Shown: positions 5,342-50,974, counted from the stretch's first letter. The stretch is DNA of 64,000 nt from Escherichia coli (GCA_002099625.1 GCA_002099625.1_4857.1), one strand, 5' to 3'. The notes: generated by a model from the letters alone, not told the origin. Translations and numbers: made by a program.

Positions 5342-5343
5342 TA

Positions 5344-20660: not shown

Positions 20661-22389
20661 CGCCGTCAAGCATGTTTTTGCGATTATTGCCTTTCACCAA
20701 CGGGTTACGTTTGGCCAGGTTCAGTATCGTCTGCAGTGTAGCGGCAGCACCGCAACAACGACGCACCAACGACAGGTTACGTCGCAAGCCGACGAAGAGG
20801 TCTTCATCCCCGTCTGGGGAGAATAACACCATCGAGAGTTCACGACCGTCGGTACGCAGGCCAGAAGGCTGATTAAGCTCATTCATGATGACTTCGCTAA
20901 TCAGGTTAACGTATTCAACGTTATCCTTGGTTGCTTTCTGGAACTGCTCCAACACTTTAATCGTGTTGTTAACCGCCTTATCCAGCGCACTGTAACGATT
21001 CAGGTTAGTCGCAGCGGTGTCGTTGGTAAAGCCTTGTTTACCTAACGTTACCACTACAGCCAGCAACTCACGTTCGTCACCAACCGATAACGTGCCTGCC
21101 TGGCGCATTTGCTCTAAGCACTCGCGTCCCAAGAACGCAGATGCTTGTGCGTTGACCAATACCTTACCAGGCACGAAGTCCACACCATCATCATGACCCA
21201 CTAAACCACGAACTTTGTTTTCTGGGATAACGACCAAAGGTGCAGTAGCGTATTCGAATCCTTTGCGGGAAACGTCGCTGATGATGAAGTTCATCGTGGT
21301 GTTCAGCTGCGCTAACGCCTGACCGAAAATAAGCGCGGTGTCGTGTGCTGCTTTGTTAACTTGCTTACCGTTGTGCGTGGTGGTTGAACCTTGCTGATTC
21401 TTAAAACCTTCGGCGACGCTTGGGTCAATCATCGCTTTAAAGGCACTCTGGAGCGAGCCAAAGTAGCCGATAAGTTCGCTGGCAACATTCGACATCTGAT
21501 GGAAGTTCAACAGGTTCGGAATACGCACACCGGCTTCGCGAGCAGACTTCGGTAACGCCTGCCAGGCTTTCTTACCCACTTCAATCGGGTAGATACCGTA
21601 CGTCACGTTATGTTGTAACAGGGTATCTAACAGATCGTGAATAACCTGCTGGCTTGACTGACGTTTCTTAGTGTAGCCTTTGAACAACTCAGTGAACGGC
21701 GAACGACCCAGTGCGCTGCTCAAGTCGTTCAGATACTCTTCCGCGTTCATGTTCGTAAACACTTCGTCGGCCATCGCGATAGCCAAGTTCAGGTTTTCCA
21801 GGTCACGACCTTTCAGACCCTTAGAGGCTTCGATGTATGCATCTTTCACTGCGCTGATTTTCAGCTGACCGATGATAGTGTTTTCGGTCTGGGAGAAACT
21901 CTCTGCTTTTTCGCCGACTTTCTCAGCGTAACCTTCGCCGTCGAATTCGCCATTACCAGCAAACCCGTTACCATTGCTGATAATCCAACCGATGATTTTG
22001 ATAATCGCGGTCATGATTAACACAACCAATCCCACTTTACCTGCATTTGCCCAGGATTCGAGCGCAACAATAGTCTCTTTCTGGTGCGTGCGGGTATAGT
22101 TCGAGGTCAGGATTTTGCGAACGGCTTCGGGAATTGTACCTGGGCGAGAAGATTCAACCGCGACGGCGACATCTTTCGACAGACCTGCGCGACGAACTTC
22201 GTCAAGAATCGCTTCAATTTGCAGAATCAGTCGAGAGCCGTAGATTAAGTCGGCTTCGTTGCGTTGCATGTACAGATTGAGCTGGTTGACAGAATCAATA
22301 CGCTCGGCCATACGTGAACGCAGGACTTCACCGATCTCCCCCAAACGCCATTTGGGGTGGGTGGCGTTACCTGTCATTTCCATGCTCAT
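20656..22389 (-). CDS. hypothetical protein with one predicted transmembrane helix
   Basis: 577-aa ORF; hydrophobic segment VGLVVLIMTAIIKIIGWII. Confidence 0.65.
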   Translation of the reverse strand: MSMEMTGNATHPKWRLGEIGEVLRSRMAERIDSVNQLNLYMQRNEADLIYGSRLILQIEAILDEVRRAGLSKDVAVAVESSRPGTIPEAVRKILTSNYTRTHQKETIVALESWANAGKVGLVVLIMTAIIKIIGWIISNGNGFAGNGEFDGEGYAEKVGEKAESFSQTENTIIGQLKISAVKDAYIEASKGLKGRDLENLNLAIAMADEVFTNMNAEEYLNDLSSALGRSPFTELFKGYTKKRQSSQQVIHDLLDTLLQHNVTYGIYPIEVGKKAWQALPKSAREAGVRIPNLLNFHQMSNVASELIGYFGSLQSAFKAMIDPSVAEGFKNQQGSTTTHNGKQVNKAAHDTALIFGQALAQLNTTMNFIISDVSRKGFEYATAPLVVIPENKVRGLVGHDDGVDFVPGKVLVNAQASAFLGRECLEQMRQAGTLSVGDERELLAVVVTLGKQGFTNDTAATNLNRYSALDKAVNNTIKVLEQFQKATKDNVEYVNLISEVIMNELNQPSGLRTDGRELSMVLFSPDGDEDLFVGLRRNLSLVRRCCGAAATLQTILNLAKRNPLVKGNNRKNMLDGE

Positions 22390-24267: not shown

Positions 24268-26052
24268 ATGGAAATCAATACCTATTACGCACCCGAGGAT
24301 GTCATCGCTAAAGAGTGCAAGCACGTCGCTTATGCGACGGACGAAGAAAAAGAAAATGACTTTGTCCTCATCAAAGAGGTCATCCATACTAAGGATGGCA
24401 GGCTTATCCCGCGCTTGGTAATGCGTGAGAATTTAAAGCGTCCGGTGTACGTTACCCGTGAAGAATATCGTAACCACCAGGAGAAAAAAGAGTTCGAAGA
24501 AAAAGGAAAATGTCAAGAACTCTGGACTACTGATGCGCAGATGGCGAAGACGTTGCAGATGGGTTTAGGTGCGCGTTTCCCTGACCCGAAAAAGAACCTG
24601 CGGCGTGTTTGTACTAGCCCGTACGTTTATTGGGCCGACTTACCGATTACCAGCTGGATTAAACAGAAATACTTAAAACGCTGGCCGAACAACATCAGTC
24701 CTAACCGTCTTTGCGTATACGACGTGGAGACCAACGAAAAGGACGGCACGAAGGAACCCTGGATCGTGTCATTTATCTTAGATGATGAAATCCATTTCTT
24801 TGGTGCTAAGAACTATATGGACCGTATCGGTAAAAACGCGGAAGAAGTCATTCTCAAAAAAGCACAGGAACTGTTAAGCAAAATCGAGTTCGACGAGAAA
24901 GACAAAAAGACTGGCGAGAAGGTGACAAAGACCAAAGACATTATCAGTGGTTATAAAATCTTCACCTATACCTGCGCTACAGCAGGGCAGTGTATCGTCA
25001 GGATGTTCGAAGAGATTCATCCGCGTCTTCCTGATTTGCTGGTCGCATGGAACCACCAGTTCGATATTTCACGCATGTTAGAAACCTTGCAGAAAGAAGG
25101 TATCGATCCGCTGGGTGTCTTTAACCATCCGGATGTGCCGGAGAAATACCGTCGTCTGTGGTTTAAAGAAGACCAGGCGAACAAAAAGACGGAATCCAAG
25201 TCACTCACCAAAGCACCGTCTCAACAGTGGCACGTACTCTACTGTACTGCGTCTTTCTACTGTGTGGATGCCATGGTGCTGTTTCGTTCGTTGCGTGTCC
25301 ACGAAGGGCAACGTCCTTCGTACAAGTTATCTGCCATACTGTACACCGAACTCGGTTTACACAAACTCGACATTCCTGGACTGCCGTATGAAGATAACCT
25401 GCAATGGCACATAAAAGCACAACGGGACTACCCTGCCGAATATGCCGTATACAACATGATGGATAACTTGTTAATCGTGTTGCTGGATAAGAAGACGAAC
25501 GACCTGTCTTCAGCAATATCCATTCTGGCAGGTTTCTCAATGTACGATATCTTCCCGTCGCTACCAAAACGTATCTGCGTGGCCTTTACCTATTATCTGT
25601 ATGACAAAGGATACGTCATCGGTTCCGTAGGGTCTGCAATGCGTAACGATTACGATGAAGAGGTTATCGGTACAGACGGTTGGATTGTTACCCTGACGGC
25701 ATGTATGAATGCTGAGAACGGTCTGAATAACATTCTGGAGGAGATTGACGAATATTACTCTGCGTTCCGTGGTCAAACTGCGGATGCGGACTTAACCCAG
25801 GCTTACCCATCGGCCACAAACATGATGAACCAGTCTCGTGAGACCACACTCATTGAGCTGCTATCCATCAATGGGGTTAGTGAAGAGATTCGACGTCGCA
25901 CGGGCGTCAACTTAACTGCTGGGCGAGTTAATGCCATGGAAATAGCGACAGACTTCTTCTGCTTACCGGACAAAGACACTGTCCTGTCTACGTTCTTACG
26001 TAAGCAAGGGGAAGTAGTGACAGAGCCTATGGAGTACATCTGCGGGTTCTAA
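24268..26052 (+). CDS. family-B DNA polymerase, N-terminal 3'-5' exonuclease part (split gene)
   Basis: 594 aa; exonuclease-like motifs in order: LCVYDVETNEKDG (Exo I, D.E), VAWNHQFDISRM (Exo II, N...FD), YAVYNMMDNLL (Exo III, Y...D); no polymerase motifs in this ORF. Confidence 0.5.
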   Translation: MEINTYYAPEDVIAKECKHVAYATDEEKENDFVLIKEVIHTKDGRLIPRLVMRENLKRPVYVTREEYRNHQEKKEFEEKGKCQELWTTDAQMAKTLQMGLGARFPDPKKNLRRVCTSPYVYWADLPITSWIKQKYLKRWPNNISPNRLCVYDVETNEKDGTKEPWIVSFILDDEIHFFGAKNYMDRIGKNAEEVILKKAQELLSKIEFDEKDKKTGEKVTKTKDIISGYKIFTYTCATAGQCIVRMFEEIHPRLPDLLVAWNHQFDISRMLETLQKEGIDPLGVFNHPDVPEKYRRLWFKEDQANKKTESKSLTKAPSQQWHVLYCTASFYCVDAMVLFRSLRVHEGQRPSYKLSAILYTELGLHKLDIPGLPYEDNLQWHIKAQRDYPAEYAVYNMMDNLLIVLLDKKTNDLSSAISILAGFSMYDIFPSLPKRICVAFTYYLYDKGYVIGSVGSAMRNDYDEEVIGTDGWIVTLTACMNAENGLNNILEEIDEYYSAFRGQTADADLTQAYPSATNMMNQSRETTLIELLSINGVSEEIRRRTGVNLTAGRVNAMEIATDFFCLPDKDTVLSTFLRKQGEVVTEPMEYICGF

Positions 26053-26616: not shown

Positions 26617-27915
26617 TTAGGTGATGTGGAATTTAGGGATGTACTCTTTAACCACGGTTTCACGACCGTGCATCGCACCCATTGCAGTGGTCATAACGTT
26701 CGAGAAGCCGGAAGAGATATCCGCAGCGATTGCCCGTGGCTCTTCTGCTTTGTGTGCAGAGGCGCACGCCGCACAACAGTCTACGTGACCTTGCTGACAT
26801 AAGATGGGTCGGCGGAGTCGAACAACTTTACCAAATTGAGTTTTCAAATACTCTTCAGTAAGTTGGGTAACTTTACCGTTAATCATCGCGTTCATGCCAA
26901 CATAACGCTTGTAGTTATACTGGTTAATTACAAGTGCATGTGTCAGTTTTGTCCCGCAATCTCCAGGCACGATTTTGTGGTTCTGGAAGATCATCTGGAT
27001 GATACGTACTTGCTCCCCGCCCTTGGCAGTTTCTGCACCACGCATGAAGGAACCTTCTCGCGTATCATTGAATTTCTCTACCAGATACTTCATCCCGGTC
27101 TGATCAACTTCCATCAGACTCGTTGGGATTAAGGTAAAATCTGCCCCTTCTTTAAAAGCGGTCTGAATACCGTACATCAGCATCAGCTTACGGCGACGCA
27201 TACGCGCTTTAGGCGAGCTGTAGAACTCAACGGACTGGTCGCCACTCAACCACTCTTTATCAAGTTCGTCGAGAGCTTTTTCAATCATAACGATAACCGC
27301 AGGGTTATCCAGCTCGTCTTTATGCTTCAACAGCAACGCATCACGTACCTTATACGCGTCAGGATGCGTTGTAAGGCTTCTAATAGTACCGGTTGGGGCT
27401 ATCCCACGACACAACGGGGCAAGCTCGTGTAGACCCCCTACAAAGCGTCCTATCATGTATGGTCGAATCGCGTCTTCGTTGTCTGGATCGGTGTCATCAT
27501 ATTCCACACAACGTTCGTACATCTCTTTACGGTAGGCTAGCGGGTCACGAGACTCTGCCAGATACGGGAGACGGGTACCGAAAGCGTAATAGATAGCAAT
27601 CCAGTTAAAGACATAGCGACCCACGGTAGTCGGAATAGGACCAGCTAAACCTGGGTACATCTCAGGACGCAATTCAAACTGCTCTTCCGGCACGAACAGC
27701 TCTTCATCTTTTTTGCACCCTTCAATCGGCACCCACTTGGTTTCTTCGTTTTCCCAGTAATGGGGCAAGCCGTCAATGTAGTTCAGGTCGTATTGCTCAG
27801 GTGGCTCACCTTTTTCATTAAAGATAGCCACGTTGAAAACCGCAATACGCCACACCAGTCTACGCCAAGCTTCTGCTTTACACGCAGCGACCAGATAATC
27901 AATCTTGTTCATCAT
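26617..27915 (-). CDS. hypothetical protein
   Basis: 432-aa ORF; cysteine cluster DCCAACASAH near the C-terminus. Confidence 0.65.
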   Translation of the reverse strand: MMNKIDYLVAACKAEAWRRLVWRIAVFNVAIFNEKGEPPEQYDLNYIDGLPHYWENEETKWVPIEGCKKDEELFVPEEQFELRPEMYPGLAGPIPTTVGRYVFNWIAIYYAFGTRLPYLAESRDPLAYRKEMYERCVEYDDTDPDNEDAIRPYMIGRFVGGLHELAPLCRGIAPTGTIRSLTTHPDAYKVRDALLLKHKDELDNPAVIVMIEKALDELDKEWLSGDQSVEFYSSPKARMRRRKLMLMYGIQTAFKEGADFTLIPTSLMEVDQTGMKYLVEKFNDTREGSFMRGAETAKGGEQVRIIQMIFQNHKIVPGDCGTKLTHALVINQYNYKRYVGMNAMINGKVTQLTEEYLKTQFGKVVRLRRPILCQQGHVDCCAACASAHKAEEPRAIAADISSGFSNVMTTAMGAMHGRETVVKEYIPKFHIT

Positions 27916-32279: not shown

Positions 32280-33930
32280 GTGATTTCCTTACAACGTAGG
32301 GGGATGTCGCGATACGGAACGACAATACGACATCCTTGAGTGATTTCTGGCGGGCATTCAGGTAATTGCAATGCTTCGGTACGTTATACGCATGGAATAA
32401 CCACACCGTTGGGTCTATTTCACCCCATTCGTTGTGGAGAATCTTACGTGGACGACCGGCCATCTGTTCGTTCAGTTGCTGGTCTTCTACCGGGGTTGAA
32501 ATGTACATGTGTACCAACCCAGGTTTATCGACCGCAGTCCCCGCTTTCCCCGGTGTGGAGATAGAGAAGTCTGCTTGGATAAAGTCGTCATACGAATCGC
32601 CTGCATTATATTTCGCCACCATCAACGGATGGAATACAGGGTCACGCGATAACTTATCTTTCACATACTCGGTAAAGAACTCACACATCGCTACCGTAGC
32701 AAAGAGTATCAAACATTTTTGGCCAGGTTGATACCGTTTAAGGAACGATTTCTCAACCACATCCCAGATCATGTTCGCGTATTCTAAATGCAAGTTCTCT
32801 TTAATCAGCTTCCCTTCGAAGAGTTTGTGGTTATACGGCGTCATCTTCGACGCCCACCACGCAAACTTCTTATCATCCAGTCGATAGTACAACGCCTTCA
32901 CGTCAACCACCGGAATGATTGGAATACTGATTCGGTACTCCATTGGGAAACGTTCTAAATACCGCTCCGCGATAAAGGCTTTACTGCTACCCGGCTTAAG
33001 GGTTGCAGACATCTCTATCGATGCCGGAGGGTTCAACATTATACCAGCCATGTAAACGAGGTGAAAATGCTCGTGCACCTCATCCATCGCCACCAGACCC
33101 ACACCCAGAACATCATAAAACGTATCCAGGTCCACAGGGTTAGTCGCAGCAGTGTTAATGTACTCCTTCAGGAAACGCTGTAGAGAGACCGTGGGGAGGA
33201 TTATTACCTTAATACCACGACTATCTAACTCTCCCGACTTACCCATCTCCAGCGCGTCGTAAATCGCCTGTACGCCTGTACAAACTAACACCTCGTCACG
33301 AAGTATACGAAGTCCTGTTTCATCATCACAGACGTCAAACAGCCATTTGGGAACGTACGACGGACGGTGAATCAATGCGGTACGGGTTCCCCGTTTAACC
33401 ATCGACTTCATACACGACTTCGTCTTCCCACGACCTGTCTGAATGGCGAAGATTGTCTGTGGTCGGTTTGGATCGGACGCTGCATCCACAACCTCGTTCT
33501 GATAGTAGAAACGCGACTCCGGATCGCTTTCTACCATCGAGAAGCCGTAGTTATCAAATGTACAGCAGTAAGGTGTTCCTCGCTCAGGATGGTGCTCTGT
33601 CAGCTTGTACTGAAAAGCATATTCAATTGCTGCTCGTTGGAGGATATGTTTAATCTTCTCAGCGAACACTTTATGGAAAATGAACGTCCTTAAAGACGGA
33701 ATGTGGGCGTAGTACGCGTCACCGCGTTCCGTAGTTATTCGTCCATGTTGCTTGCCCATCTTTGGGGCGTGCATATTCTCTTCGGCCCACGCGAGTATGG
33801 CCCTTTCAGCCTGGCGGATAGGGACTTCAACCCGTACCCCCATACTCGTGTAAGTCATTTGAATTTCTACCATGCTGCCCCTCTTCGCACAAAAAAAGAG
33901 GGGCGCAAGGCCCCTCGGTTTACAACTCAA
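32167..33930 (-). CDS. SF2 (DEAH-type) helicase
   Basis: 587 aa; Walker A-like IQTGRGKTKS, motif II VAMDEVHEHFH, motif III-like MSATLKP. Confidence 0.7.
   Translation of the reverse strand: MSCKPRGLAPLFFCAKRGSMVEIQMTYTSMGVRVEVPIRQAERAILAWAEENMHAPKMGKQHGRITTERGDAYYAHIPSLRTFIFHKVFAEKIKHILQRAAIEYAFQYKLTEHHPERGTPYCCTFDNYGFSMVESDPESRFYYQNEVVDAASDPNRPQTIFAIQTGRGKTKSCMKSMVKRGTRTALIHRPSYVPKWLFDVCDDETGLRILRDEVLVCTGVQAIYDALEMGKSGELDSRGIKVIILPTVSLQRFLKEYINTAATNPVDLDTFYDVLGVGLVAMDEVHEHFHLVYMAGIMLNPPASIEMSATLKPGSSKAFIAERYLERFPMEYRISIPIIPVVDVKALYYRLDDKKFAWWASKMTPYNHKLFEGKLIKENLHLEYANMIWDVVEKSFLKRYQPGQKCLILFATVAMCEFFTEYVKDKLSRDPVFHPLMVAKYNAGDSYDDFIQADFSISTPGKAGTAVDKPGLVHMYISTPVEDQQLNEQMAGRPRKILHNEWGEIDPTVWLFHAYNVPKHCNYLNARQKSLKDVVLSFRIATSPYVVRKSHAHSAASSRAAATLHRNDFSKFSRKHSKGVSRRRRRR
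33888..33920 (-). terminator. intrinsic terminator after the beta'-C gene
   Basis: hairpin GAGGGGC-GCAA-GGCCCCTC preceded on plus by ACAAAAAAAG. Confidence 0.55.
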
Positions 33931-36025
33931 TTACCACAGCGGCTCCTAGGTCATCGTACAACGATGCCGGGATTTTGTACTCGGTATAAAAACCAACGCG
34001 ATCGATATTCCCCTGCTGTCCTTCAAACAACAACATCGGAATTGCCGAGCGCAAACTAATGAGCGTGTTGTGATCGACAAACCGTTTCCCGGTGGCATTA
34101 GTAGAATCCTCACTGTCAAATCCTACTGCCGGGAACGGATTGGTTGGCGACTCTACACGAGATATCGCCAACATAATCGCAATATGCGTCATCGGTATAC
34201 CACTCAGCTTACGCTGGATATACTTAAACGTGTCCATCAACGCATAAGTACACTGTTTCTCTGTAGCACCACCCATCTCAACCAACGTCACTGGTTTCAC
34301 ACGACCTTGTTTCTTGTTCAGCTTCACAGTCGATGCCGTGTTGATGATTTCCACAATGTCTTCGTTCTTATCGGCAGCAATCGAACGGAGCTTGGTTTCT
34401 AAGCCGGCTACGAACTCTGCCATCGATTCAGAACGGTTGGTGTAGACCAGGACCGGGTGTTTCGGGTTCCATCCTTTTAAGGGGATTTCTACTGTCTTCT
34501 TCTCGATACGAATGTTCGCTCGTTGTTTCAAGAAGTAGTGCAGGAACGGTTTAGAGAAGTTCCCACAAACACCCATTCGCACATCGATAGAATCCGCAGC
34601 GATTATCTGCCCATCTTCTAAACGACGTTGGAAAGTTAAGTCGGTGATTTCTGGTAATGCCGTTTCATCAATTGCATCGAGATCTTCATGATACGCAATC
34701 TGGCTCAGCTCCGAATAAATTTTGTCGGTAACAACCAACTCGTATTCTGACCAATTCCCACGCTGTGGTTTTGGCAGCAAGCACAACCCTTTCAGAGAGT
34801 TATGTTTGTATTCGGTCATATACTCACGCATACGTGGGGTGAGTACCAGGTTGAGCAGATAACGCAAGAAGTCAAGGTGCTTGGTAGAGAGAATTCCCTG
34901 TGTACCCTTTTCCGAGATGGACGTGGACGCCAGGTGACCTGGTGACGTACCTTCAGAGAGGTTATAAATCAAATCCCCCATACAGGTCGCACAGATGGAC
35001 TGATTCGCCATCTCTTTACAGGTCATGGCACTACGGAAGACCAGCGGTTTGCCAACCAGGTCTGCGTATCCACCTTTCTCAAATCTCAACCACGGACCAT
35101 TATCGCCTTCTAAACGATAACGCATCCCCACCATCGCTTTATAGGCACGCTCATCCAGCTGCGTATCCTTAAACGTGTAGCGGTGTGCGTGAGTTGTACC
35201 GCAGTCGTCGTACGTGAAATACATCAGTACGTTTGCTGCCAACTGCAGTTTACGTGAGGCGTATTCTGCTTCGGCAATCTTGTCAGTGTTGTACAAGTGG
35301 GAACGTGAAGTTGCACCGGATTCTTTCAAACGCGAAATAACCGAGTGCATTCCGGTAAAGAAGCCTTCCCACACCTGATTGGTGTATACACGTGAGTCAA
35401 TTTCTGACGTTTTACCACGCACGAAGGCTTGCAGTACCTGGTTCATCTTCACAGTACCGTCCAGTACCGACATCACGACCGGGTTATACCGTAGCGCAGG
35501 GTCTTTGAAGATTTTCTCGATAAGCTTGTACGCTTCTTCAACCATATCCTGACCATCTTCATCGTAGCCAGTAGGGTATTGCACTTCCCACTGACGGATG
35601 AGTTCGAAGTTCGGGTGGTCGTAGATCTCCATCATCGTATCAAAGTCGATTGTCGTACAATAGGACAGCAAGTTCTTCACTGTCATGTTGAACGCATCGG
35701 CGTAGACATGTTGACTCAGGATATAACGCGTTTCAGCAAGGTCGACACCTGCTTTACGGGCCAGTACCGCTGCTTCCGACATAAAGTCCAGATGCAGGTC
35801 ATCTGTTGCTACCTGACCTGGACGATACGCCATGGTCGATGGAGTGGGCACCTGCGGATACAGACGCGACACACCCCAATACGGCCAGCTGAGTTTGATG
35901 TGGCGACTAGACATTTCCAACGACTTACCATCGTCGAATGTCACGTAATAACGCCCGCGTAGTTTCCACACCTGATCAGAGTTAAGCATACGCAAATCAC
36001 GTACGTGTACAGAACGACCCGCCAT
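33920..36025 (-). CDS. multisubunit RNA polymerase beta'-like subunit, C-terminal fragment
   Basis: 701 aa; RSAMTCKEMANQSICATCMGDLIYNLSEGTSPGHLASTSISEKGTQGILSTKHL resembles the bacterial beta' segment RSV.TC...GVCA.CYG.DL...SIGEPGTQLTMRTFH; no DFDGD motif, so not the N-terminal half. Confidence 0.65.
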   Translation of the reverse strand: MAGRSVHVRDLRMLNSDQVWKLRGRYYVTFDDGKSLEMSSRHIKLSWPYWGVSRLYPQVPTPSTMAYRPGQVATDDLHLDFMSEAAVLARKAGVDLAETRYILSQHVYADAFNMTVKNLLSYCTTIDFDTMMEIYDHPNFELIRQWEVQYPTGYDEDGQDMVEEAYKLIEKIFKDPALRYNPVVMSVLDGTVKMNQVLQAFVRGKTSEIDSRVYTNQVWEGFFTGMHSVISRLKESGATSRSHLYNTDKIAEAEYASRKLQLAANVLMYFTYDDCGTTHAHRYTFKDTQLDERAYKAMVGMRYRLEGDNGPWLRFEKGGYADLVGKPLVFRSAMTCKEMANQSICATCMGDLIYNLSEGTSPGHLASTSISEKGTQGILSTKHLDFLRYLLNLVLTPRMREYMTEYKHNSLKGLCLLPKPQRGNWSEYELVVTDKIYSELSQIAYHEDLDAIDETALPEITDLTFQRRLEDGQIIAADSIDVRMGVCGNFSKPFLHYFLKQRANIRIEKKTVEIPLKGWNPKHPVLVYTNRSESMAEFVAGLETKLRSIAADKNEDIVEIINTASTVKLNKKQGRVKPVTLVEMGGATEKQCTYALMDTFKYIQRKLSGIPMTHIAIMLAISRVESPTNPFPAVGFDSEDSTNATGKRFVDHNTLISLRSAIPMLLFEGQQGNIDRVGFYTEYKIPASLYDDLGAAVVIEL

Positions 36026-38262
36026 TATTTATCCTCCCGAATTGGACGCACTAATTCAAAACCTTCACAGCGATGGATGTTACGTATCATCCTGTCAATC
36101 TGCGAATCACCCATTGGTAGTTTCTTACGATCGACCAGCACCCCTGGATTGGTTGGTGTTGGCGAGTTATACAGCCCCGTTACGATCGCACGGTGTACCG
36201 CTGGGTTATTAGCGCGGTCATGAGTTTCGGGGAAGTTGCCCGGACCAAAGCCGTCGGTAAGACGCTGCTCGGAAGGACCACCCCACTTCAACCCTTTCAG
36301 GTTAATCGGATATGAACCACGTCCTTGGTTGGATGCATCAATACAACCCAAATAGTTCGTGTACATCGACGAGATACTGGAGAACTCACGACCGGTTTTA
36401 TCCAGGCGCAGAGTCTCTACCATGCCGACGTAGAACTGGTTCTTCGTCCACTCTTTCTCACCCTGATAGTTAGTAATCAGTAGCTTAGACTTGCGTGGTG
36501 CATACTCGCCTAGAGCACGGCAGATTTCTACCTGGGTGGCATTCAATTCGTGGGGAAGCCAGATACGAATCGTGAAGTCGTAAATCTCTTTAAAGAGTTC
36601 CAGACGTGACCCAGTATCCGGGTGACTGGCATTGAGATAGAATGTCCAGCGTGGGTTATAGCGATCGATATAGTCCATCAGGATTTCCCAGGCTTCATCA
36701 ACCTGGTTGGCGGCAAGTAATGGTTTCAACCGCATCTTCAACTGCTCGGATGCAGCAGACCAATACATGTGGAACAGCGCAGCATAAGTCGAACGACGAA
36801 TTACGGCGTTCATGGAACGAATGACATGCACACGTTCTCCGAACTCGTTAATCGGCATTTCTTCATCAGGCCGCACTGCGCCCACGATACCTTTTGTACC
36901 TGAACGGTCGGTGATTTTCGATGAGACGGTAACTGGGATTGGATAACGTACCACGATGCGTATCGTGTAACTACCAATTGGGTCCCAGAGACCACGCTGA
37001 ACCGGCTGCGCCAGTTTGTTCAACACGTTCTTATCAGCAGAACGGTTATACTCGCCTTTGCGCATGGCTTCATCGTATTCACGACCAATCTCTTCACGGA
37101 AGTCGTTATAGACTTCATACGTCTCAGAACAGAACGCCTTGTCGAGAATCTCAAACGCTTTCGGTGACCAGACAATATTCTTGTCCTTGGACATCGCAAA
37201 ATAGAACCGCACGATATCATTGTAAAAACGTTTCAAAGCGTTCGCGTAGTGATCTAACTCGCGTTTGTTCTCTTCGGTACATGCGATATTGTTAACACCA
37301 CGATCGCATTTGGTTTCGTCCCGCCATACCTGAATATCAACGACACGAGAACCAGTACGTTCCATCTTTTCAAAGTCGCCAGCCTGACGCGCTTTGTAAT
37401 GCTCAGGGTCGGCATCAACATACTCACAACGGTCGAAGTGCGGAGAGATATGTTGTGTTTCGCCCACGTGTGAGTCAATAGCCGCCCACAGCTTATCGAA
37501 ACGACGCGCGGCTATAACCAACCCATCATCGCGAATTGCCTGTCCTTTATTGGGCAGGTACTGTGGTCGACGAACGCCATCAATACCCGTTGTCCCATAC
37601 GTATCAAGCAGGTACTCGTCGTCGCGCAAGGTAAAGTCGATTGCACGCAAACCATAAGCGTGCATCGCCTTCGCTGCAGTTTCGGAGATGGTGTACGAGT
37701 CCTCGATAATGTCCGGGTGCGACATTGTCACAGTGTGCAGGTTGACCCCATCGACAAACTCACCGTCTTTCTGTGCCGGCAGCACGGTAAGCATTTCATC
37801 TTTTTCCAGGTGCTGAGTCTGCCCGCGCAGCAACGCCTGAAGTTTCCCAGTAGCCTCTTTCTTAGACGAGAAAATGTTATCGTGGTTGGTGTAATACTTG
37901 ATATCGATTACATCAATCATCACTTTGCGCTGGTTGGTTAAATCTGCGCGCGTGAAGAAGATAACATGTTGGAGCGGATCGTGATCCCCTTCACGACCAT
38001 AGCGTGCAAAAACAGCTGCACGAGTAACACCTTCTTTGGTTGTGTAACTGCACACGGTACCACTATCTTCCACGATATCGTTAAAACAATAATCGTGGTA
38101 GTTCACATCAGCGCCGGTAAAATGGATAGTCGGGTCTGGATTGTCCAGTGGTACCGCCGACTTCATATGTCCACCCACCATTGAGGCACGTGCCCCAGAT
38201 ACGCCAGTGATATTCACCTCACGGTCAGCAACGCTTGACATGAGTTCGACTGGTGTTTTCAT
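36025..38262 (-). CDS. multisubunit RNA polymerase beta-like subunit (C-terminal two-thirds)
   Basis: 745 aa; DRSGTKGIVGAVRPDEEMPINEFGERVHVI resembles the bacterial beta active-site segment GRHGNKGVISKI.PIEDMP; start overlaps the stop of the beta'-C gene. Confidence 0.65.
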   Translation of the reverse strand: MKTPVELMSSVADREVNITGVSGARASMVGGHMKSAVPLDNPDPTIHFTGADVNYHDYCFNDIVEDSGTVCSYTTKEGVTRAAVFARYGREGDHDPLQHVIFFTRADLTNQRKVMIDVIDIKYYTNHDNIFSSKKEATGKLQALLRGQTQHLEKDEMLTVLPAQKDGEFVDGVNLHTVTMSHPDIIEDSYTISETAAKAMHAYGLRAIDFTLRDDEYLLDTYGTTGIDGVRRPQYLPNKGQAIRDDGLVIAARRFDKLWAAIDSHVGETQHISPHFDRCEYVDADPEHYKARQAGDFEKMERTGSRVVDIQVWRDETKCDRGVNNIACTEENKRELDHYANALKRFYNDIVRFYFAMSKDKNIVWSPKAFEILDKAFCSETYEVYNDFREEIGREYDEAMRKGEYNRSADKNVLNKLAQPVQRGLWDPIGSYTIRIVVRYPIPVTVSSKITDRSGTKGIVGAVRPDEEMPINEFGERVHVIRSMNAVIRRSTYAALFHMYWSAASEQLKMRLKPLLAANQVDEAWEILMDYIDRYNPRWTFYLNASHPDTGSRLELFKEIYDFTIRIWLPHELNATQVEICRALGEYAPRKSKLLITNYQGEKEWTKNQFYVGMVETLRLDKTGREFSSISSMYTNYLGCIDASNQGRGSYPINLKGLKWGGPSEQRLTDGFGPGNFPETHDRANNPAVHRAIVTGLYNSPTPTNPGVLVDRKKLPMGDSQIDRMIRNIHRCEGFELVRPIREDK

Positions 38263-38292: not shown

Positions 38293-38307
38293 AGATAATA
38301 TCTATCT
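38293..38307 (-). promoter_or_regulatory. conserved promoter-like element (short form) upstream of the RNAP beta-like gene
   Basis: plus-strand AGATAATATCTATCT ~35 nt upstream of the minus-strand start at 38262; also ~20 nt upstream of the plus-strand gene at 38329. Confidence 0.5.
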
Positions 38308-40069: not shown

Positions 40070-41770
40070 TTAATCAATGAGACCGTTGCCGAGTCCGTTT
40101 CCGCCTATACCGCCTAAGCCACCACCCAGGTCAAGACCTCCAAGAGGATCTAAGCCACCTGTGTTAGTTGGAATGTTAGATAGCATTCGACCCCGGCCTT
40201 GGCCTTTCTCGAATTCTGTATAACCTTCTTCCACGGCTTTCAACAGCGTTGCGGTGTTCTGTGCCAGCTCACCAACGTATTTGAGATCGGTGGTGTTGCC
40301 GGTATGGAGACGGAATTGCATAAACGACGCGTAGGTGTAATATTCCAGCGGTTCGTCGTCGACACGGATTTCAATACGAGTAACGGTCCCCAACAATGCG
40401 GTGACCAGCATGTGGCAGCGAATATGGTTATGTTTAGTAACCTGAACCATCGCTTCTTTCATGTTCTGCAAGAAACGACGACCTAATGCAGCAGGTAACT
40501 GATGGTGCGTGATGCTGCTGACTGAGTTAGGAATAACTTCCAACGTAGGCTCTATCATGATATCTGTGTTGCGGTTATCAAAGACAAAGCTCACTTCACC
40601 AATCAGGTTACGTGACATAATCGGCCCGATAGACATAGCCAGATCATACGCAACTAGACTACCCTGCGTGGAGAAGCCATTACGTCCAATCCAGTGGTCG
40701 GTTTGGTTAACCAGCCCTGCACCCAACCCACGGCGACTTGCCAGCGCCAGCGATTCACGGATACATTCATCCAACCGCATTGGGTTGACAATCGCATTAC
40801 GCAAATCAGCCAAACGGAACGTCGCCTTACTGGTTGCTTTCCAACCGCCAGATACATCAGACATCCCGTTCTGGAGTGCTTGACGCATCGCAGCAATCAG
40901 TTCGTGGTTGCTGTAGTTACGGATAACACCACGCTGCTTCAATTCAGATTCAACGCCGATGGAGTTATTACCTGCAAAGAAGCTTTCCACGCTACCGAGT
41001 TCGGTATCTACCCCAGAGCTTGCCAGATACGCATTACTGATGGCAGATACGTAGTTTTCTGGACGCTGGAGTTGGGATACCATCAACTGTGGTGCAGAGC
41101 TACTGGTTGCGGATAGCACAGAGTCGCTCGTTGGGACGAACTTCTCACCGCTATTCATTTCAATACGTTTTACCATGTCCGCTGCTTTCGCGATCGAAAT
41201 GATATCTACCGTACTTTCTGTTTGACCTTCAACAGACAGCGCTTTCGATAAAACGTAGTTATCCAGTAGACGGAATGAGTCTGGGTTCAATGTTTTGCCG
41301 CCCAGGGCATCGTGTGTATACGTTGCCTGTAAGCCGTAGATGTCGTTAATGTACAACACCATATCGTCCGGCAGCAGGCTACCCAGGCTGGTTTCTGCCT
41401 GACTGGTATAACCGGATACGATGTATTGCGTTTCCTGAGTGCGTGTTGCATTCAGAGGTTTAGCAATAAACACCGCCACGAAGTTAAAGATACCGGTATC
41501 ACGTGATTCCCATTGGAACTGTACAGGACGATTGTCATCATCGGACACGTTGATGAATGGACGCTCAAAACCATTCTGGGTGCCATCGAAGCCCACGATG
41601 GCAGATAATGCTTCTTGATACTGCTGTGTTCCCACAGCTTTTTCCCCGCCCAGTTCAACCGCTGCTGCTAAGTCATCCAGTGCACCCGTCGATGCGTTAA
41701 AGCCGATGCGGCGACGAACTTGCTCTGGAACATCGTAGACCGGATACATCAGTAGATTTACAAGCTGCAT
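40070..41770 (-). CDS. hypothetical protein with Gly-rich C-terminal tail
   Basis: 566 aa; C-terminus NTGGLDPLGGLDLGGGLGGIGGNGLGNGLID. Confidence 0.65.
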   Translation of the reverse strand: MQLVNLLMYPVYDVPEQVRRRIGFNASTGALDDLAAAVELGGEKAVGTQQYQEALSAIVGFDGTQNGFERPFINVSDDDNRPVQFQWESRDTGIFNFVAVFIAKPLNATRTQETQYIVSGYTSQAETSLGSLLPDDMVLYINDIYGLQATYTHDALGGKTLNPDSFRLLDNYVLSKALSVEGQTESTVDIISIAKAADMVKRIEMNSGEKFVPTSDSVLSATSSSAPQLMVSQLQRPENYVSAISNAYLASSGVDTELGSVESFFAGNNSIGVESELKQRGVIRNYSNHELIAAMRQALQNGMSDVSGGWKATSKATFRLADLRNAIVNPMRLDECIRESLALASRRGLGAGLVNQTDHWIGRNGFSTQGSLVAYDLAMSIGPIMSRNLIGEVSFVFDNRNTDIMIEPTLEVIPNSVSSITHHQLPAALGRRFLQNMKEAMVQVTKHNHIRCHMLVTALLGTVTRIEIRVDDEPLEYYTYASFMQFRLHTGNTTDLKYVGELAQNTATLLKAVEEGYTEFEKGQGRGRMLSNIPTNTGGLDPLGGLDLGGGLGGIGGNGLGNGLID

Positions 41771-41782
41771 TTTAAATACTCC

Positions 41783-43417
41783 TTAAGAATTAAACCATTC
41801 AACTTCTTCTAACTTGCGACGTGCATTCAACACCATAAACTCCGCCAGGCTATTGTGCAGTGACAAGTGAGGTATATAGTTTGGCTGATCCGTCTCACAC
41901 TTCAGCAGCGCAGCTGCTTCTGGTGTAGCCCTGAGATGGAACAGATACGGGTTGATGTGATCCTTGTGTAACAAGGTCAGTGATTCCCGTGGTGTAGATT
42001 GCGGTTCGAGATTACGCGGGTTGCGATACTCCTGAAGATAATATCTATCTAAATCTGCTTTGAGTTCAGATCGAATTGGGTCGGCTGCATAACCGGCAGA
42101 CATCTCAGAACGCACCATATTGCAACTTAACAGTTGCGCAACGTCATACATTCCATAATTGAGATAAGTTGCCTGTGCCAACGCCATACCGTAGCGAAAC
42201 GCTTCTGGCCCACATTCAGTATACGTCTTATAATGCGCGCTACGATGGAGTGCTAATGCGACTAACCATTCGTGCAACGTATAGACAGGACCGTCATGTG
42301 TTGCCAGTTGCGAATCAATCAATAACTTAACATCTGCTGGAGCGGCATTATCCAGACGCATTGTTTTCAAGAAAGAGCGGTATTCTTTAAATACGTACTC
42401 GGTACGGACGTATTCTTTCATCTGTGCAGGAGAACGTGCCTGCACCAAATCCATGGCGTTTATCTTACCCTTTTCGCCATTGAATACCACACTTTCCGGA
42501 TGCGCTTTTAACAGCACCGGCTGGTTAGAGATTTTGTTTGCAAAACCTGTTTCAATCTCTTGTTTAACCAGAAAATACATGCCGGTGACGATATTGTTGT
42601 TAACCATGATTTCAACCGGTAATTCACCACCGACTTCACGGACAGCCAACAATTTAATAATAGCATACGCCAGGATATAATCTTCCATCATATCCGTGCC
42701 ATAGCCCCGCACCGTAGCCAGTACCGACAAACTGGTGCTGTTCGTACCTTTGTTTGCCAGTTCTTTTTCTACCTTTTCCATCACTGTCTGTAGGAACCCA
42801 CGCAGTTTCGGAATAGCAGGTAAAGACATGACTTCCGTGTCTTGAAGCATCTCCAGACAGTATGTCAGATTGTACACCATTTTCCGGTGTGTTTCGATTG
42901 GCAAGTTCTTACCTATCGGGAACGTCCCCATGGTGAGGAACACCGGAATATACGGTTTAATCATCAGAACCAGTATCAACAACTCGTAATAGTCCGGACG
43001 AATGTACGTCATCGCTTCCGGATAATTACTGTTCATTTCATCGTGCGTATCTTCCATGTTCTGCGGAATCCACAGCTTATCGATGGGATACAGCTTACGA
43101 TACACTTCGGCCTTGTGGAACTTCGCAATCGTCTGCACAATCTTCGGCATGTGCTTACGCTGCGTTTCCGTCGATTCGTTTGCCAGCTCGTCCAGCATCA
43201 GATACGCCATGAACAGTTCATCTTGTTCGTCTGGCGTTAAATAATCCCACACGCGTTGTAATTCCATGAAGAGAATGTTGTCGCGTGCAATCTGTTTACC
43301 TTTAACAGTGATGTAGTCGGGTGCGTTGTTATCCTTCCGATAACGTAAGCCAATAAATGTGACCTCTTGACCGTGATGCTCGATTGTCATCCGGTCTTTA
43401 ATCTTCGTAATTTTCAT
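41783..43417 (-). CDS. hypothetical protein
   Basis: 544-aa ORF, first gene downstream of a promoter-like element. Confidence 0.65.
   Translation of the reverse strand: MKITKIKDRMTIEHHGQEVTFIGLRYRKDNNAPDYITVKGKQIARDNILFMELQRVWDYLTPDEQDELFMAYLMLDELANESTETQRKHMPKIVQTIAKFHKAEVYRKLYPIDKLWIPQNMEDTHDEMNSNYPEAMTYIRPDYYELLILVLMIKPYIPVFLTMGTFPIGKNLPIETHRKMVYNLTYCLEMLQDTEVMSLPAIPKLRGFLQTVMEKVEKELANKGTNSTSLSVLATVRGYGTDMMEDYILAYAIIKLLAVREVGGELPVEIMVNNNIVTGMYFLVKQEIETGFANKISNQPVLLKAHPESVVFNGEKGKINAMDLVQARSPAQMKEYVRTEYVFKEYRSFLKTMRLDNAAPADVKLLIDSQLATHDGPVYTLHEWLVALALHRSAHYKTYTECGPEAFRYGMALAQATYLNYGMYDVAQLLSCNMVRSEMSAGYAADPIRSELKADLDRYYLQEYRNPRNLEPQSTPRESLTLLHKDHINPYLFHLRATPEAAALLKCETDQPNYIPHLSLHNSLAEFMVLNARRKLEEVEWFNS
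42035..42049 (-). promoter_or_regulatory. intragenic copy of the conserved promoter-like element
   Basis: AGATAATATCTATCT inside the coding region of gene 41783-43417. Confidence 0.3.
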
Positions 43418-47974: not shown

Positions 47975-48247
47975 TTAGCCCATCACCGCTTCCAACGGAA
48001 TGCCTTCTTCATCATCCTCATCTGCTTCAATAAGGAACTGGTTCTGCATACTGATTAGCTCGTTATGTAAAACCATGCCGTGTTCTACGCGGTCCACATC
48101 AGTAGAAGACATAAAGCCGTTATCTGGACGGAATTGGAGCGCCAACTTCATCTCAGTTTCATCGACTGGCAAACGTACCTGGAACTGGTCGCCATCAAAA
48201 TCCTGTTTGTCCACTCCAATCCTTTTGGAGCAGGTGTGTAGTAACAC
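47975..48247 (-). CDS. RNA polymerase beta'-N, exon 2 (carries the catalytic DFDGD motif)
   Basis: translation ...LLHTCSKRIGVDKQDFDGDQFQVRLPVDE... matches bacterial beta' ...[24 protein letters not shown]; track start is GTG with no properly spaced SD, consistent with a spliced exon. Confidence 0.65.
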   Translation of the reverse strand: MLLHTCSKRIGVDKQDFDGDQFQVRLPVDETEMKLALQFRPDNGFMSSTDVDRVEHGMVLHNELISMQNQFLIEADEDDEEGIPLEAVMG

Positions 48248-48249
48248 CC

Positions 48250-49660
48250 TCCCTAACTTTCATTAGGGCACAGACCATACCTTAGCCATGAGCTTTCGCT
48301 TTTAGGCTCCTCCCCACTTCGGCGCTATTCTAAGCACCTACGAGCATTTCAGCTCCGGTCGTTGAACGTTCCTCTTACGAGGCTTCGCTGCTGATTACCC
48401 ATTGTTAAAACCCTTAGCAGTATTGTTTAGCATAGGTCATCTCATTACTTGTTTCCGACTTTCGTCTCCACATGGGCAAATGAGCTTTAGGGGTTCCCAG
48501 CAATTCAGGGAGATACACATCAGAGGTTTCCCGTCTGATGGGGCAAGGTTATTCTGCTGTTAAATATTGAACTTCAAATTGTTTGTACTTTCCAGTTTGT
48601 GAGACTGCTTTGGCCACAGTGTTTCTTTTCACACCAATCGCGTTTGAAAACTCTTGTAGAGAATTCCAAATGGTTTTGATATTAGTGGTCGTATCAGTCA
48701 CACGCACCATCGATGGTACACGTTTTGGCATTTGTGATTGTGGTCTGGGTTTGCGGAGATCGATCATGTCGGTTATGGCAACATCGATATCCACCATATA
48801 CCACGCCTCATATCCAAACTTAGTCAAATCGACGGTACCGCCGTTGAGGTGAGAATAGATGAGGTGTGGTTTTATACCCACGTATTCGGCTGCTGCCGGT
48901 ACAGACGAGAACAGGAAATATGGTTCCTTACCAACCTTTCTGATGACCAGTCCTTTATTACCTGGTCCTGAGTTCTTGCCAATAGAATTCTTGGTGAGAA
49001 TCCAGTCGTCTGCCGGTAGCTTGACTTCAAACACATCATTTAGCGTGTATTGACGATTAAGTCCACGCGTGATCGAGCTTGAAACCAAGTGCCGATTAAC
49101 GCCGATATACTCAGCTGCCTTAGCCATGCTACGGAACTGAACTATATCGCCGGTCTCGAGATTTCTGACATCGACAATAATGTTGTCAGTTCTTAGACCA
49201 GTATCGAAAGCATGATTAACATTTTCCTTTCGATAACACCACTCAAGGTTTACCACAGATGGATTACTCTTAACACCATCACGATGGTTAACCTCGTCAC
49301 CACATTTATCCAGGAACACAGTCGCAACAATTCGATGTAAATGGGTTTCGTCTTTACAACCGCGCACTCCCAGGTATCCACTTTTGAGAATGAAGACCGG
49401 TAGCGGCATGACCATACCTTTTACTTTACAGTCACCCAATGCATCAACAAAGAGATCACGATAGACTGGGTGTCTGTAATACCCCTTAAAAACATACGAG
49501 GGCTCTAAATCATCGCGTAGTTTCCTACTCAACTTTTCAATAATCACAATTTATTCCCTATTACCAGTCACCGACTAAGAATAAGGAATAGCAGAATAAC
49601 ACTTTTACCGTTAGCCATCTTGATCACACGGTCAGAGATACGCAGCGAACACTGGTTAAC
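48250..49660 (-). mobile_element. putative group I intron with embedded HNH homing endonuclease, interrupting the beta'-N gene (boundaries approximate)
   Basis: conserved beta' sequence is interrupted between ...NPTLVQLSIQ... (exon 1) and ...DFDGDQ... (exon 2); between them an HNH ORF and ~300 nt of hairpin-rich non-coding sequence (48250-48548). Confidence 0.55.
48549..49547 (-). CDS. HNH homing endonuclease with NUMOD-like DNA-binding repeats
   Basis: 332 aa; HNH motif ETHLHRIVATVFLDKCGDEVNHRDGVKSNPSVVNLEW; three repeats of the type AAEYIGVNRHLVSSSITRG / AAEYVGIKPHLIYSHLNGG / FSNAIGVKRNTVAKAVSQTG. Confidence 0.85.
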   Translation of the reverse strand: MIIEKLSRKLRDDLEPSYVFKGYYRHPVYRDLFVDALGDCKVKGMVMPLPVFILKSGYLGVRGCKDETHLHRIVATVFLDKCGDEVNHRDGVKSNPSVVNLEWCYRKENVNHAFDTGLRTDNIIVDVRNLETGDIVQFRSMAKAAEYIGVNRHLVSSSITRGLNRQYTLNDVFEVKLPADDWILTKNSIGKNSGPGNKGLVIRKVGKEPYFLFSSVPAAAEYVGIKPHLIYSHLNGGTVDLTKFGYEAWYMVDIDVAITDMIDLRKPRPQSQMPKRVPSMVRVTDTTTNIKTIWNSLQEFSNAIGVKRNTVAKAVSQTGKYKQFEVQYLTAE

Positions 49661-50974
49661 ATCGGTAACAACTTCATCGATGTACAGCGTTTGAATAGAC
49701 AACTGTACCAGCGTTGGGTTACGTAACGGTATGACCATGATCCCAAGACCGCCTGGGGATTCACGAATCAGTTCTTTAAAGATTTCATCTACAAGCGGGT
49801 CATACTGCATTGCCGCTTTTGCAACGATACGTTCACATTGCCGTGACGAATAACCCCGTCGTAGCAGTTTGTTCTCGATGTGGGTCGACATCAACCCAAC
49901 CATCCAACGCCATGGTGCTTTTAACTTCCAGGCATCGTGTGGTTCTGAGATAGGTGAGATGGTTGCACGACCACCGAACGGGATATGGGTAGAACCCAAT
50001 TTCGCACGATAGTCACCCGGTTTACCTTCCATAGACTCACGACGGAAGTCCATGTGGAAGTATGTTAACTGACGGTTGGCTTTCAAAGCGCGACTAATCA
50101 GAAAACGTGGTTCGATCGCTTTACGCCGCGTATAAAGTAACGCGATATTTTTCACCGCATCGATAGCACCCGTGAACACTGGGTCTACCATGACACCACG
50201 ACGACCTTCCTCAGTAACGATAAGCTTAGAGGAGATTAGCGGTAAGTGTCTTGGGAAGAATGCATGGCGTTGCGTTTCGAATAGCTCCTTCCATTGTAAA
50301 CGTAAGCGTTCACCTTCAGCGGCGTTATGCCGATTAGGTGCGAAGATTTCCTTCCAGGCTTCCGGCGTGGTAAGGATGTTAAAGATACTAACGTGGTTAT
50401 CAACCAGATTGCGCAAGCCACGAACGAAACCGTGTTCTTCCAATACACGTTTCACAGCATGTGCGCGTTTACCGTCTGGTTCTTCTATACGGTAATACGG
50501 GTCAATCATCCACATCATCAAGTCATTACCGCGTTCGATAGTGACCTTGTTACGTTCAAACTTCTTCAACTTGCTATTAAAGAAAGCATTGAACATTGCC
50601 CAGAATCGTGGGTTGACGAAGTTACCCATTTCATCAGGTGCACGTAACCAGACATCGGATTCAATTCGATATTCAGTTACAACATAGCCACACGTCGGAC
50701 ACTTACAACCGAGATTGTAACGATGCGCGATCGGTGCCGGACAATCCAAACTACAAATCGGTGCAGAGTTCAGTTCTTCGTCAACGATTCTGTTCTGTAC
50801 CATGCGATCGATAAGTTCAGCAACTTCGATCGCATCCCCGTTAACGGCGACATCGTTAATAATAGTGGGTGGTTTAATACCTTTGGCAGCAGCTTCTATT
50901 TGCAAATCGGACAAATAGTTATCCTGACTAACCAACCGGCCGGATATTCCGTAGAATTTTGGTACCTTTCTCAC
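49568..50974 (-). CDS. RNA polymerase beta'-N, exon 1 (3' end of the ORF runs into the intron)
   Basis: N-terminal zinc finger CSLDCPAPIAHRYNLGCKCPTCGY; IPLRNPTLVQLSIQ resembles bacterial NRAPTLHRLGIQ; the last ~30 codons of the track ORF are probably intron sequence read in frame. Confidence 0.75.
   Translation of the reverse strand: MRKVPKFYGISGRLVSQDNYLSDLQIEAAAKGIKPPTIINDVAVNGDAIEVAELIDRMVQNRIVDEELNSAPICSLDCPAPIAHRYNLGCKCPTCGYVVTEYRIESDVWLRAPDEMGNFVNPRFWAMFNAFFNSKLKKFERNKVTIERGNDLMMWMIDPYYRIEEPDGKRAHAVKRVLEEHGFVRGLRNLVDNHVSIFNILTTPEAWKEIFAPNRHNAAEGERLRLQWKELFETQRHAFFPRHLPLISSKLIVTEEGRRGVMVDPVFTGAIDAVKNIALLYTRRKAIEPRFLISRALKANRQLTYFHMDFRRESMEGKPGDYRAKLGSTHIPFGGRATISPISEPHDAWKLKAPWRWMVGLMSTHIENKLLRRGYSSRQCERIVAKAAMQYDPLVDEIFKELIRESPGGLGIMVIPLRNPTLVQLSIQTLYIDEVVTDVNQCSLRISDRVIKMANGKSVILLFLILSR

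Follow-up and report, generated by a model that had tools for sequence, protein, structure and literature searches.

Two overlapping genes encoding C-terminal beta and beta-prime halves of a non-virion RNA polymerase in DNA of an SPN3US-like jumbo phage

The stretch of DNA analysed here, 64,000 nucleotides (nt) filed under Escherichia coli (GCA_002099625.1) and referred to below as the window, contains two adjacent genes on its minus strand, at 36025-38262 and 33920-36025, which the first-pass annotation of this DNA had singled out, with coordinates that proved exact, as overlapping fragments of a phage-encoded multisubunit RNA polymerase (RNAP). The two open reading frames (ORFs) have a single base in common, the stop codon TAA of the upstream gene running into the ATG of the downstream gene (TAATG; GATAAATAATGGCG), and both are intact in all relatives compared. 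The 4343-bp region that they occupy shows 98.9-99.0% identity from end to end with Salmonella phage SPN3US, Proteus phage 7, SEGD1, EC001 and about 30 further Seoulvirus records, the plus strand of the window corresponding to the minus strand of SPN3US. The source phage of the pair is an SPN3US-like (Seoulvirus, phiKZ-related) jumbo phage, and in SPN3US itself the two genes are recorded as SPN3US_0034 (gp34), 'putative DNA-directed RNA polymerase beta subunit 2', and SPN3US_0035 (gp35), '... beta' subunit'. We conclude, with a probability of about 95%, that the pair encodes the C-terminal half of beta and the C-terminal half of beta-prime (hereafter beta C and beta-prime C) of this phage's non-virion RNA polymerase (nvRNAP).

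The 745-aa product of the upstream gene, equivalent to gp34, matched the RNA polymerase family phrog_3295 end to end in a PHROG search (E 6e-268), and its best sequence match in the PDB was the phiKZ chain 7OGP_C (PHIKZ071; 1.8e-29 with phmmer and a single sequence). Family alignments, reaching down to 21% identity, were built from 33 homologues for beta C and 31 for beta-prime C. The beta C profile matched 7OGP_C at 3.4e-94, its positions 8-724 falling on chain residues 14-694 of 700, and further matched the nvRNAP of phage AR9 (1.4e-51) and the beta subunit of E. coli (4.3e-20), extending to archaeal, eukaryotic and poxviral second-largest subunits. In the profile alignment the protein covers the range of bacterial beta from residue ~658 to at least 1250. 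An AlphaFold (AF2) model computed from the alignment reached a predicted local distance difference test (pLDDT) score of 82.2 and a predicted template modelling (pTM) score of 0.72, and Foldseek placed 8QUE_C first (E 1.9e-42, template modelling (TM) scores 0.67/0.71), followed by AR9 chain C (TM 0.59/0.68) and by bacterial beta (TMq ~0.47). For this model and for that of beta-prime C alike, the AR9 nvRNAP is followed by bacterial chains of the corresponding subunit, numbering in the hundreds. In blastp the protein was matched by phiKZ gp71 over query residues 8-354 and by phiKZ gp73 over query residues 469-737.

The segment DRSGTKGIVGAVRPDEEMP, residues 452-470 of this protein (window 36853-36909), lies within a longer double-psi beta-barrel (DPBB) motif, in which K449, K457, G458 and M469 are invariant in 33/33 homologues. 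The motif aligns with ...fKMTDFHGGKGVICKV... of phiKZ gp71-73, the two lysines being spaced by eight residues in both, and K386 and K394 of gp71-73 are the conserved DPBB lysines of the solved structure (PMC8287921). As judged by these alignments, of the two catalytic double-psi beta-barrels one, with its two invariant lysines, resides in the beta piece.

The 701-aa product of the downstream gene, equivalent to gp35, matched the RNA polymerase family phrog_3015 end to end (E 8e-241) and, among PDB sequences, phiKZ 7OGP_D best (PHIKZ074; single-sequence phmmer, 1.2e-38). With the beta-prime C profile the match to 7OGP_D stood at 3.9e-111, profile positions 6-691 corresponding to chain residues 4-671 of 677, and matches to the AR9 nvRNAP (3.2e-17) and to bacterial beta-prime (7.7e-12) were also obtained; residues 716-937 of E. 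coli beta-prime, the region from bridge helix to trigger loop, align to profile positions 179-385. According to Thomas et al. (PMC5105663), regions a17-a20 from the C-terminal part of beta-prime have their counterpart in the final portion of SPN3US gp35; the beta-prime piece would on this account include the C-terminal clamp regions. Foldseek again put a phiKZ chain first for the predicted structure (8QUE_D, E 2.1e-30, probability 1.0), followed by AR9 nvRNAP chain D and by bacterial beta-prime.

Two groups of residues in this protein stand out. Four cysteines (C275, C336, C345 and C348), invariant in 31/31 homologues, align with C288, C341, C350 and C353 of phiKZ gp74, which form a Zn site in a protein for which PMC8287921 also names bridge and trigger helices; the octapeptide CATCMGDL (residues 345-352, window 34970-34993) contains the last two of them. 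Further towards the C terminus, the segment SISEKGTQGILSTKHL aligns with ...KITSAVLSTKHTD of gp74, inside the trigger helix region described in PMC8287921, and its Q376, S380, K382 and H383 are likewise invariant in 31/31 homologues. On this alignment, the zinc site, the trigger loop and the bridge-helix region all belong to the beta-prime piece. The hallmark beta and beta-prime motifs quoted by the first-pass annotation are accordingly present at DRSGTKGIVGAVRPDEEMP, CATCMGDL and SISEKGTQGILSTKHL, and the motif and residue alignments identify them as the DPBB lysine motif of beta, part of the Zn site of beta-prime and its trigger loop. Its description of the genes as beta-like and beta-prime-C-like also stood, the former being more precisely the C-terminal half of beta according to the PHROG, PDB and fold matches, and profile hidden Markov models, structure prediction and comparison with the phiKZ subunits all recover RNAP beta and beta-prime.

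That annotation had further held that the virion-packaged enzyme (vRNAP) and the non-virion enzyme could not be told apart from sequence. This was too pessimistic, as orthology gives the non-virion enzyme. All RNAP subunits of the phiKZ genome were compared with the window, and the 701-aa protein matched the non-virion subunit gp74 at 5e-41 over 701 columns, against 1.5e-4 over 92 residues for the virion subunit gp80; neither virion gp178 nor virion gp149 was matched by it in this comparison, and the 745-aa protein had no match to either of them at E<0.1. The non-virion and virion enzymes also constitute separate PHROG families. The gene order is that of phiKZ, running from beta-prime N with an HNH gene through SbcD, gp66, gp68, an unmatched gene, gp70, beta C and beta-prime C to a helicase, and continuing beyond it to the virion beta-prime gene (gp80) and the DNA polymerase gene (gp82). 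Thomas et al. 2016 (PMC5105663) refer to gp35 of SPN3US as nvRNAP beta-prime and to gp77 as the beta N fragment of the same enzyme; from mass spectrometry of virions, together with a gp241 amber mutant, they showed the virion enzyme to consist of gp241, gp218, gp240, gp42 and gp244.

It might be argued instead that the pair encodes subunits of the vRNAP, the polymerase injected along with the DNA to transcribe the early genes. Both enzymes are made of split beta and beta-prime fragments, a genuine vRNAP gene is located only 6 kb away (26617-27915), and beta-prime C shows short, weak paralogous matches to virion gp80 (1.5e-4, 92 aa) and to phrog_2962 (1.7e-06). However, the full-length best matches of both proteins are non-virion chains, with none to the virion beta proteins gp178 or gp149; the gene order fits the nvRNAP genes of phiKZ; and mass spectrometry of SPN3US virions yields gp42, gp218, gp240, gp241 and gp244, gp35 being called nvRNAP beta-prime (PMC5105663). 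On the reciprocal comparison with all phiKZ RNAP subunits and the SPN3US virion data the virion assignment was rejected, and we regard it as very improbable. By sequence comparison, then, both genes are intact, full-length orthologues of phiKZ gp71-73 and gp74, the non-virion subunits, an assignment that follows from the full-length matches to gp71/73 and gp74, the phiKZ gene order and the published virion proteomics of SPN3US. More generally, virion and non-virion enzymes can be distinguished from sequence through orthology and synteny.

The flanks of the pair hold candidate transcription signals. Early promoters in these phages are marked by AT-rich motifs of ~10 nt (review PMC7598289), and an element of this kind, AGATAGATATTATCT, was found upstream of beta C, 31-45 nt from the start codon, in a divergent intergenic region of 66 nt. 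Its core GATATTATCT is present seven times in exact form in the window, on the minus (coding) strand in every case, the first base of each copy being at 38302, 42045, 43461, 52966, 53059, 61005 and 63969, respectively; most of them extend to AGATAGATATTATCT in the form (A/C)AGATAGATATTATCT, and 6/7 are intergenic and lie 40-160 nt upstream of gene starts. Copies occur 44-56 nt upstream of the gp68-like gene (44 nt) and of the gene preceding beta-prime N. When one mismatch was allowed, 17 matches to GATATTATCT were counted against 3.0 expected, a number reached in none of 100 shuffles. We consider AGATAGATATTATCT/GATATTATCT a candidate early promoter element, to be read by the virion RNAP. A scan for sigma-70-type promoters around the focal genes gave 7 sites versus 7.8 expected; to our knowledge, the host RNAP is not used by these phages.

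On the other side of the pair, a consensus scan detected a terminator-like hairpin of 7 pairs, 6 of them G-C, followed by TTTTTTT, which probably marks the end of a two-gene transcription unit; folding of the 51-nt terminator region gave a z-score of -1.9 and a competing alternative hairpin. Taken together, the upstream motif, the hairpin with its T7 run and the TAATG overlap suggest a two-gene, translationally coupled early operon.

The assignment of the pair to the nvRNAP has several weak points. The Pfam model Rpb2_6 passed only narrowly in the 745-aa protein (24.1 bits, gathering score 23.4), and Rpb1_5, run on the 701-aa protein as a single sequence, remained at 17.1 bits, below its gathering score of 28.5. 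The AF2 model of beta-prime C is of moderate confidence (pLDDT 74.6, pTM 0.51), and its bridge-helix region is aligned yet has low pLDDT at residues 203-247; the global TM of this model against 8QUE_D is low (0.33-0.35), as one would expect when an extended, multi-domain chain is modelled on its own. The beta N gene (gp77 in SPN3US) lies outside the window, a tblastn search of the 64 kb with the gp123-type beta N gene giving no homologue, which is a weak point. Terminator-like sites in the region number 6 versus 5.0 in shuffles, with no enrichment; of these only the one right behind beta-prime C is of good quality, and its assignment rests on its position and quality. The promoter and terminator assignments are pattern-based only.

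Marginal Pfam scores, together with an identity to cellular beta and beta-prime of only 12-15% in structural alignments, could be taken to mean that the motifs are chance matches, or that the genes are decayed, inactive RNAP paralogues with some other role, for example a structural one. Against this, the matches to the solved, active enzyme have E-values of 1e-29 to 1e-111; the DPBB lysines, the Zn cysteines and the trigger-loop histidine are invariant even in homologues of no more than 21% identity; every relative keeps the ORFs intact; and the phiKZ orthologues belong to a biochemically active polymerase (PMC8287921). We therefore give chance or decay hardly any credence, slightly less even than a virion origin, and nothing in the data contradicts the assignment of the pair to beta C and beta-prime C of the non-virion enzyme. 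The features of the window discussed here are listed in Table 1.

Table 1. Polymerase genes, sequence motifs, candidate signals and intron components located in the window
Feature	Position	Strand	Remarks
Beta C-terminal-half gene, non-virion RNA polymerase	36025-38262	minus	745 aa, ATG start, intact ORF
Beta-prime C-terminal-half gene, non-virion RNA polymerase	33920-36025	minus	701 aa, ATG start, intact ORF
DPBB motif SSKITDRSGTKGIVGAVRPDEEMP	36853-36924	minus	two conserved lysines, K449 and K457
Zn-binding cysteines C275, C336, C345, C348 of beta-prime C	34970-35209	minus	predicted by alignment
Trigger-loop/helix segment SISEKGTQGILSTKHL	34874-34921	minus	residues 369-384 of the 701-aa protein
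AGATAGATATTATCT, candidate early (virion-RNAP-read) promoter element	38293-38307	minus	inferred from pattern
Terminator-like hairpin GAGGGGC-CTTGC-GCCCCTC + T7	33891-33916	minus	begins 4 nt past the beta-prime C stop
gp68-like fifth (sigma-like) nvRNAP subunit gene	41783-43417	minus	544 aa, equivalent to SPN3US gp30
Virion-RNAP beta-prime fragment gene	26617-27915	minus	432 aa, equivalent to SPN3US gp42 ('beta-prime M')/phiKZ gp80
Beta-prime N exon 1	49607-50974	minus	equivalent to SPN3US gp23/phiKZ gp55; ends ...MANG (GGT)
Group I intron	48203-49606	minus	1404 nt; predicted ribozyme core 48251-48579, Rfam RF00028
HNH/NUMOD homing-endonuclease ORF inside the intron	48549-49547	minus	332 aa
Beta-prime N exon 2	47975-48202	minus	begins DFDGDQ..., catalytic Mg-binding aspartates

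The window holds further polymerase genes. The beta-prime N gene, which the first-pass annotation had put 12 kb away, is real; its first exon lies ~11.3 kb from position 38262, and the gene is interrupted by an intron, as described below. The fifth, sigma-like subunit is represented by a gp68-like protein in syntenic position, whose matches to phiKZ gp68 (3e-12 over residues 13-434, blastp) and to 7OGP_B (2.8e-06) are weaker than those of the catalytic subunits. The remaining gene, at 26617-27915, encodes a protein matching phrog_2962 at 1.3e-175 and phiKZ gp80 at 1.1e-39; its SPN3US equivalent gp42 was detected in virions and was lost along with the other vRNAP subunits in the gp241 amber mutant (PMC5105663), and it belongs to the virion enzyme, not to the enzyme of the focal genes. 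Of the five nvRNAP genes, four are thus found in the window, together with a single vRNAP gene. The earlier count of at least three RNAP fragments holds and can be refined to four beta- or beta-prime-like genes plus the gp68-like gene, drawn from two polymerases, and the split-subunit organisation of phiKZ-like jumbo phages that had been proposed from them is borne out by phiKZ orthology and gene order.

Among the other neighbours, the genes at 24268-26052 (plus strand) and 54575-56854 (minus strand) fall into the DNA polymerase families phrog_3011 and phrog_2927, each with a weak match to phrog_262; the former is the phiKZ gp82 homologue, and the two may represent a split or duplicated family B DNA polymerase. 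Two candidates were considered by position and not retained. The gene at 51057-52910 (minus, 617 aa) occupies the place of the phiKZ shell protein gp54, with no BLAST match to gp54 and no PDB sequence match, and the one at 40070-41770 (minus, 566 aa) occupies the place of phiKZ gp69 (PicA), with a pairwise similarity that is not significant (E>2); a shell-protein or PicA identity for these genes rests on synteny. As for the helicase downstream of the pair, its start is most likely the ATG at 33873, as in SPN3US, and not the TTG at 33930 of the ORF listing, so that the helicase gene does not overlap beta-prime C. A tRNA scan of the window found none, and an Rfam scan of the whole window gave the group I intron as its sole match.

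That intron resides in the gene for beta-prime N, which in the window is 1404 bases longer than in SPN3US, and alignment to the intron-less SPN3US sequence was used to set the exon boundaries. The product of exon 1 matched phrog_2987 at 2.3e-154 and phiKZ gp55 at 3.4e-41. The insert contains a ribozyme core recognized by RF00028 (53.4 bits, where the gathering score is 50; E 2.9e-12) and has the predicted junctions GGT/ (with U before the 5' splice site) and ...CAG/ (with a terminal G), the slash marking the splice site. The ORF within it encodes a protein related to the HNH endonucleases of phrog_59 (3e-28), to Pfam NUMOD1 (1e-14) and to phiKZ gp56 (2e-17). The predicted spliced coding sequence (CDS) has 1596 nt, the length of SPN3US gp23, with which it is collinear and free of indels, the proteins differing at few residues; in the junction region shown, the spliced CDS of the window is identical to SPN3US gp23. 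The predicted 531-aa product matched 7OGP_A (2.1e-38), a chain deposited as a fusion of PHIKZ055 and PHIKZ056.1, with the alignment running through the ...DFDGDQ... segment. These predicted boundaries place a group I intron bearing an HNH gene within the catalytic NG/DFDGD motif of the nvRNAP beta-prime N gene.

When the exon 2 ORF was compared by BLAST with the annotated phiKZ gp56.1, no match was obtained, because the annotated gp56.1 ORF begins downstream of DFDGD; an in-frame upstream translation of gp56.1, together with the 7OGP_A fusion, supplied the missing match. The phiKZ introns were inspected at 4160-5540 and 19460-20710 of the phiKZ locus. The beta-prime N gene of phiKZ has a comparable group I intron (Rfam 75.6 bits), with a splice site one codon upstream of that in the window; an identical site in the two phages was considered and rejected, the junction being AAT/GCT (N/ADFDGD) in phiKZ and GGT/GAT (NG/DFDGD) in the window, one codon apart.

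Among Seoulvirus isolates that are 97-99% identical, three allelic states were found at the beta-prime N intron site. SPN3US has no intron; EC001 has an intron of ~357 nt without an ORF (Rfam 69.4 bits), and JN03, SPLA5c, SPLA3, Lh1B and 1252 share with EC001 a pattern of 81% coverage, as seen in the nucleotide search only; in the window, as in Proteus phage 7 and SaP7, the intron comes together with the HNH ORF. Relative to the ORF-less intron, the extra 1062 bp of the window correspond exactly to the ORF block. In the records of EC001 and Proteus phage 7 the exons are annotated as separate proteins and the intron is left unannotated. A literature search for introns in Seoulvirus gave no paper, and the intron polymorphism of this partner gene is the only mildly new item.

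An intron-encoded HNH endonuclease in the vRNAP gene of PhiPA3 nicks the homologous phiKZ gene and provides a competitive advantage (Birkholz et al. 2024), PhiPA3 gp210 acting on phiKZ gp178. On this model one might speculate that the intron HNH protein of the window is a weapon of interference competition, which would introduce nicks into an essential polymerase gene of co-infecting SPN3US-like phages that carry the allele without the intron, and that the allelic states would then record an ongoing contest instead of the neutral drift of a selfish element; this analogy remains tentative, and we hold it to be rather doubtful. A polymorphic intron in the DFDGD motif could serve as a convenient natural system for studying intron-endonuclease competition between near-identical jumbo phages.

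As we can picture it from work on related phages, the enzyme would operate as follows. In the literature on phiKZ-type phages, the nvRNAP is described as a product of early genes that transcribes the late ones (among others PMC7598289 and PMC8287921). By analogy with phiKZ and AR9, the injected virion RNAP would transcribe the early genes, those of the nvRNAP among them, and the focal pair would be read early by that enzyme as a two-gene unit, from AGATAGATATTATCT at 38293-38307 to the hairpin and T7 at 33916-33891, the one-base TAATG overlap presumably coupling translation of beta C and beta-prime C. Their products would join the spliced beta-prime N protein with its DFDGD Mg site, beta N (gp77 in SPN3US) and the gp68-like subunit. 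The outcome of this assembly, to judge from phiKZ and AR9 biochemistry and structures, would be a five-subunit nvRNAP devoid of alpha and omega. The gp68-like protein, if it behaves as phiKZ gp68, whose role in the nvRNAP is described in PMC8287921, would be integral to assembly, DNA binding and promoter recognition. Once assembled, the nvRNAP would transcribe the middle and late phage genes inside the phage nucleus, independently of the host polymerase.

Public labels for the pair are inconsistent, ranging from 'RNA polymerase alpha subunit' (Proteus phage 7, MET_P1_082_240) and 'beta subunit' for both genes to 'beta subunit 1', 'beta subunit 2' and 'hypothetical protein' across records. In the light of the matches reported here, the 'alpha' label is wrong, since both genes match beta or beta-prime chains and PMC8287921 reports no alpha or omega homologue. 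The focal genes are already annotated and published as gp34/gp35 of SPN3US-type phages, so that the finding is an ordinary one and not new, and little is to be learnt from the genes themselves, as their phiKZ orthologues have already been solved by electron cryo-microscopy. The practical value of the analysis lies in correcting these annotations and in mapping all polymerase genes of the window.

With regard to known systems, the closest counterparts are gp34 and gp35 of SPN3US, which have the same lengths, order and one-base overlap as the pair in the window and differ from it at ~1% of nucleotides; the SPFM phages, with Proteus phage 7, SEGD1 and EC001, are listed beside SPN3US as carriers of these genes. 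At a larger distance, the nvRNAP gp71-73/gp74 of the Pseudomonas phage phiKZ (PDB 7OGP, 7OGR, 8QUE and 9RJS) shares with the window the split points, flanking genes, key residues and predicted folds at an identity of ~22-26%. The beta C gene of phiKZ is itself split by a group I intron in the GGKG lysine motif (gp71/gp72/gp73; Rfam 87.6 bits), whereas that of the window is continuous. The AR9 nvRNAP, from a Bacillus phage (PDB 7S00, 7S01 and 7UM0), is likewise a split-subunit enzyme devoid of alpha and omega and came second in both profile and fold searches, but is more distant (13-17% identity in structural alignments); AR9 reads uracil-containing promoters in the template strand (PMC7598289), and nothing points to that mode in the phage of the window. 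With bacterial RpoB and RpoC, the proteins described here share the elements of the catalytic core, at an identity near the detection limit of single-sequence Pfam models. Unlike in the bacterial enzyme, two genes in the phage encode each large subunit, alpha and omega partners are missing, and a divergent sigma-like fifth subunit, integral to the polymerase, takes the place of alpha and omega in assembly (PMC8287921).

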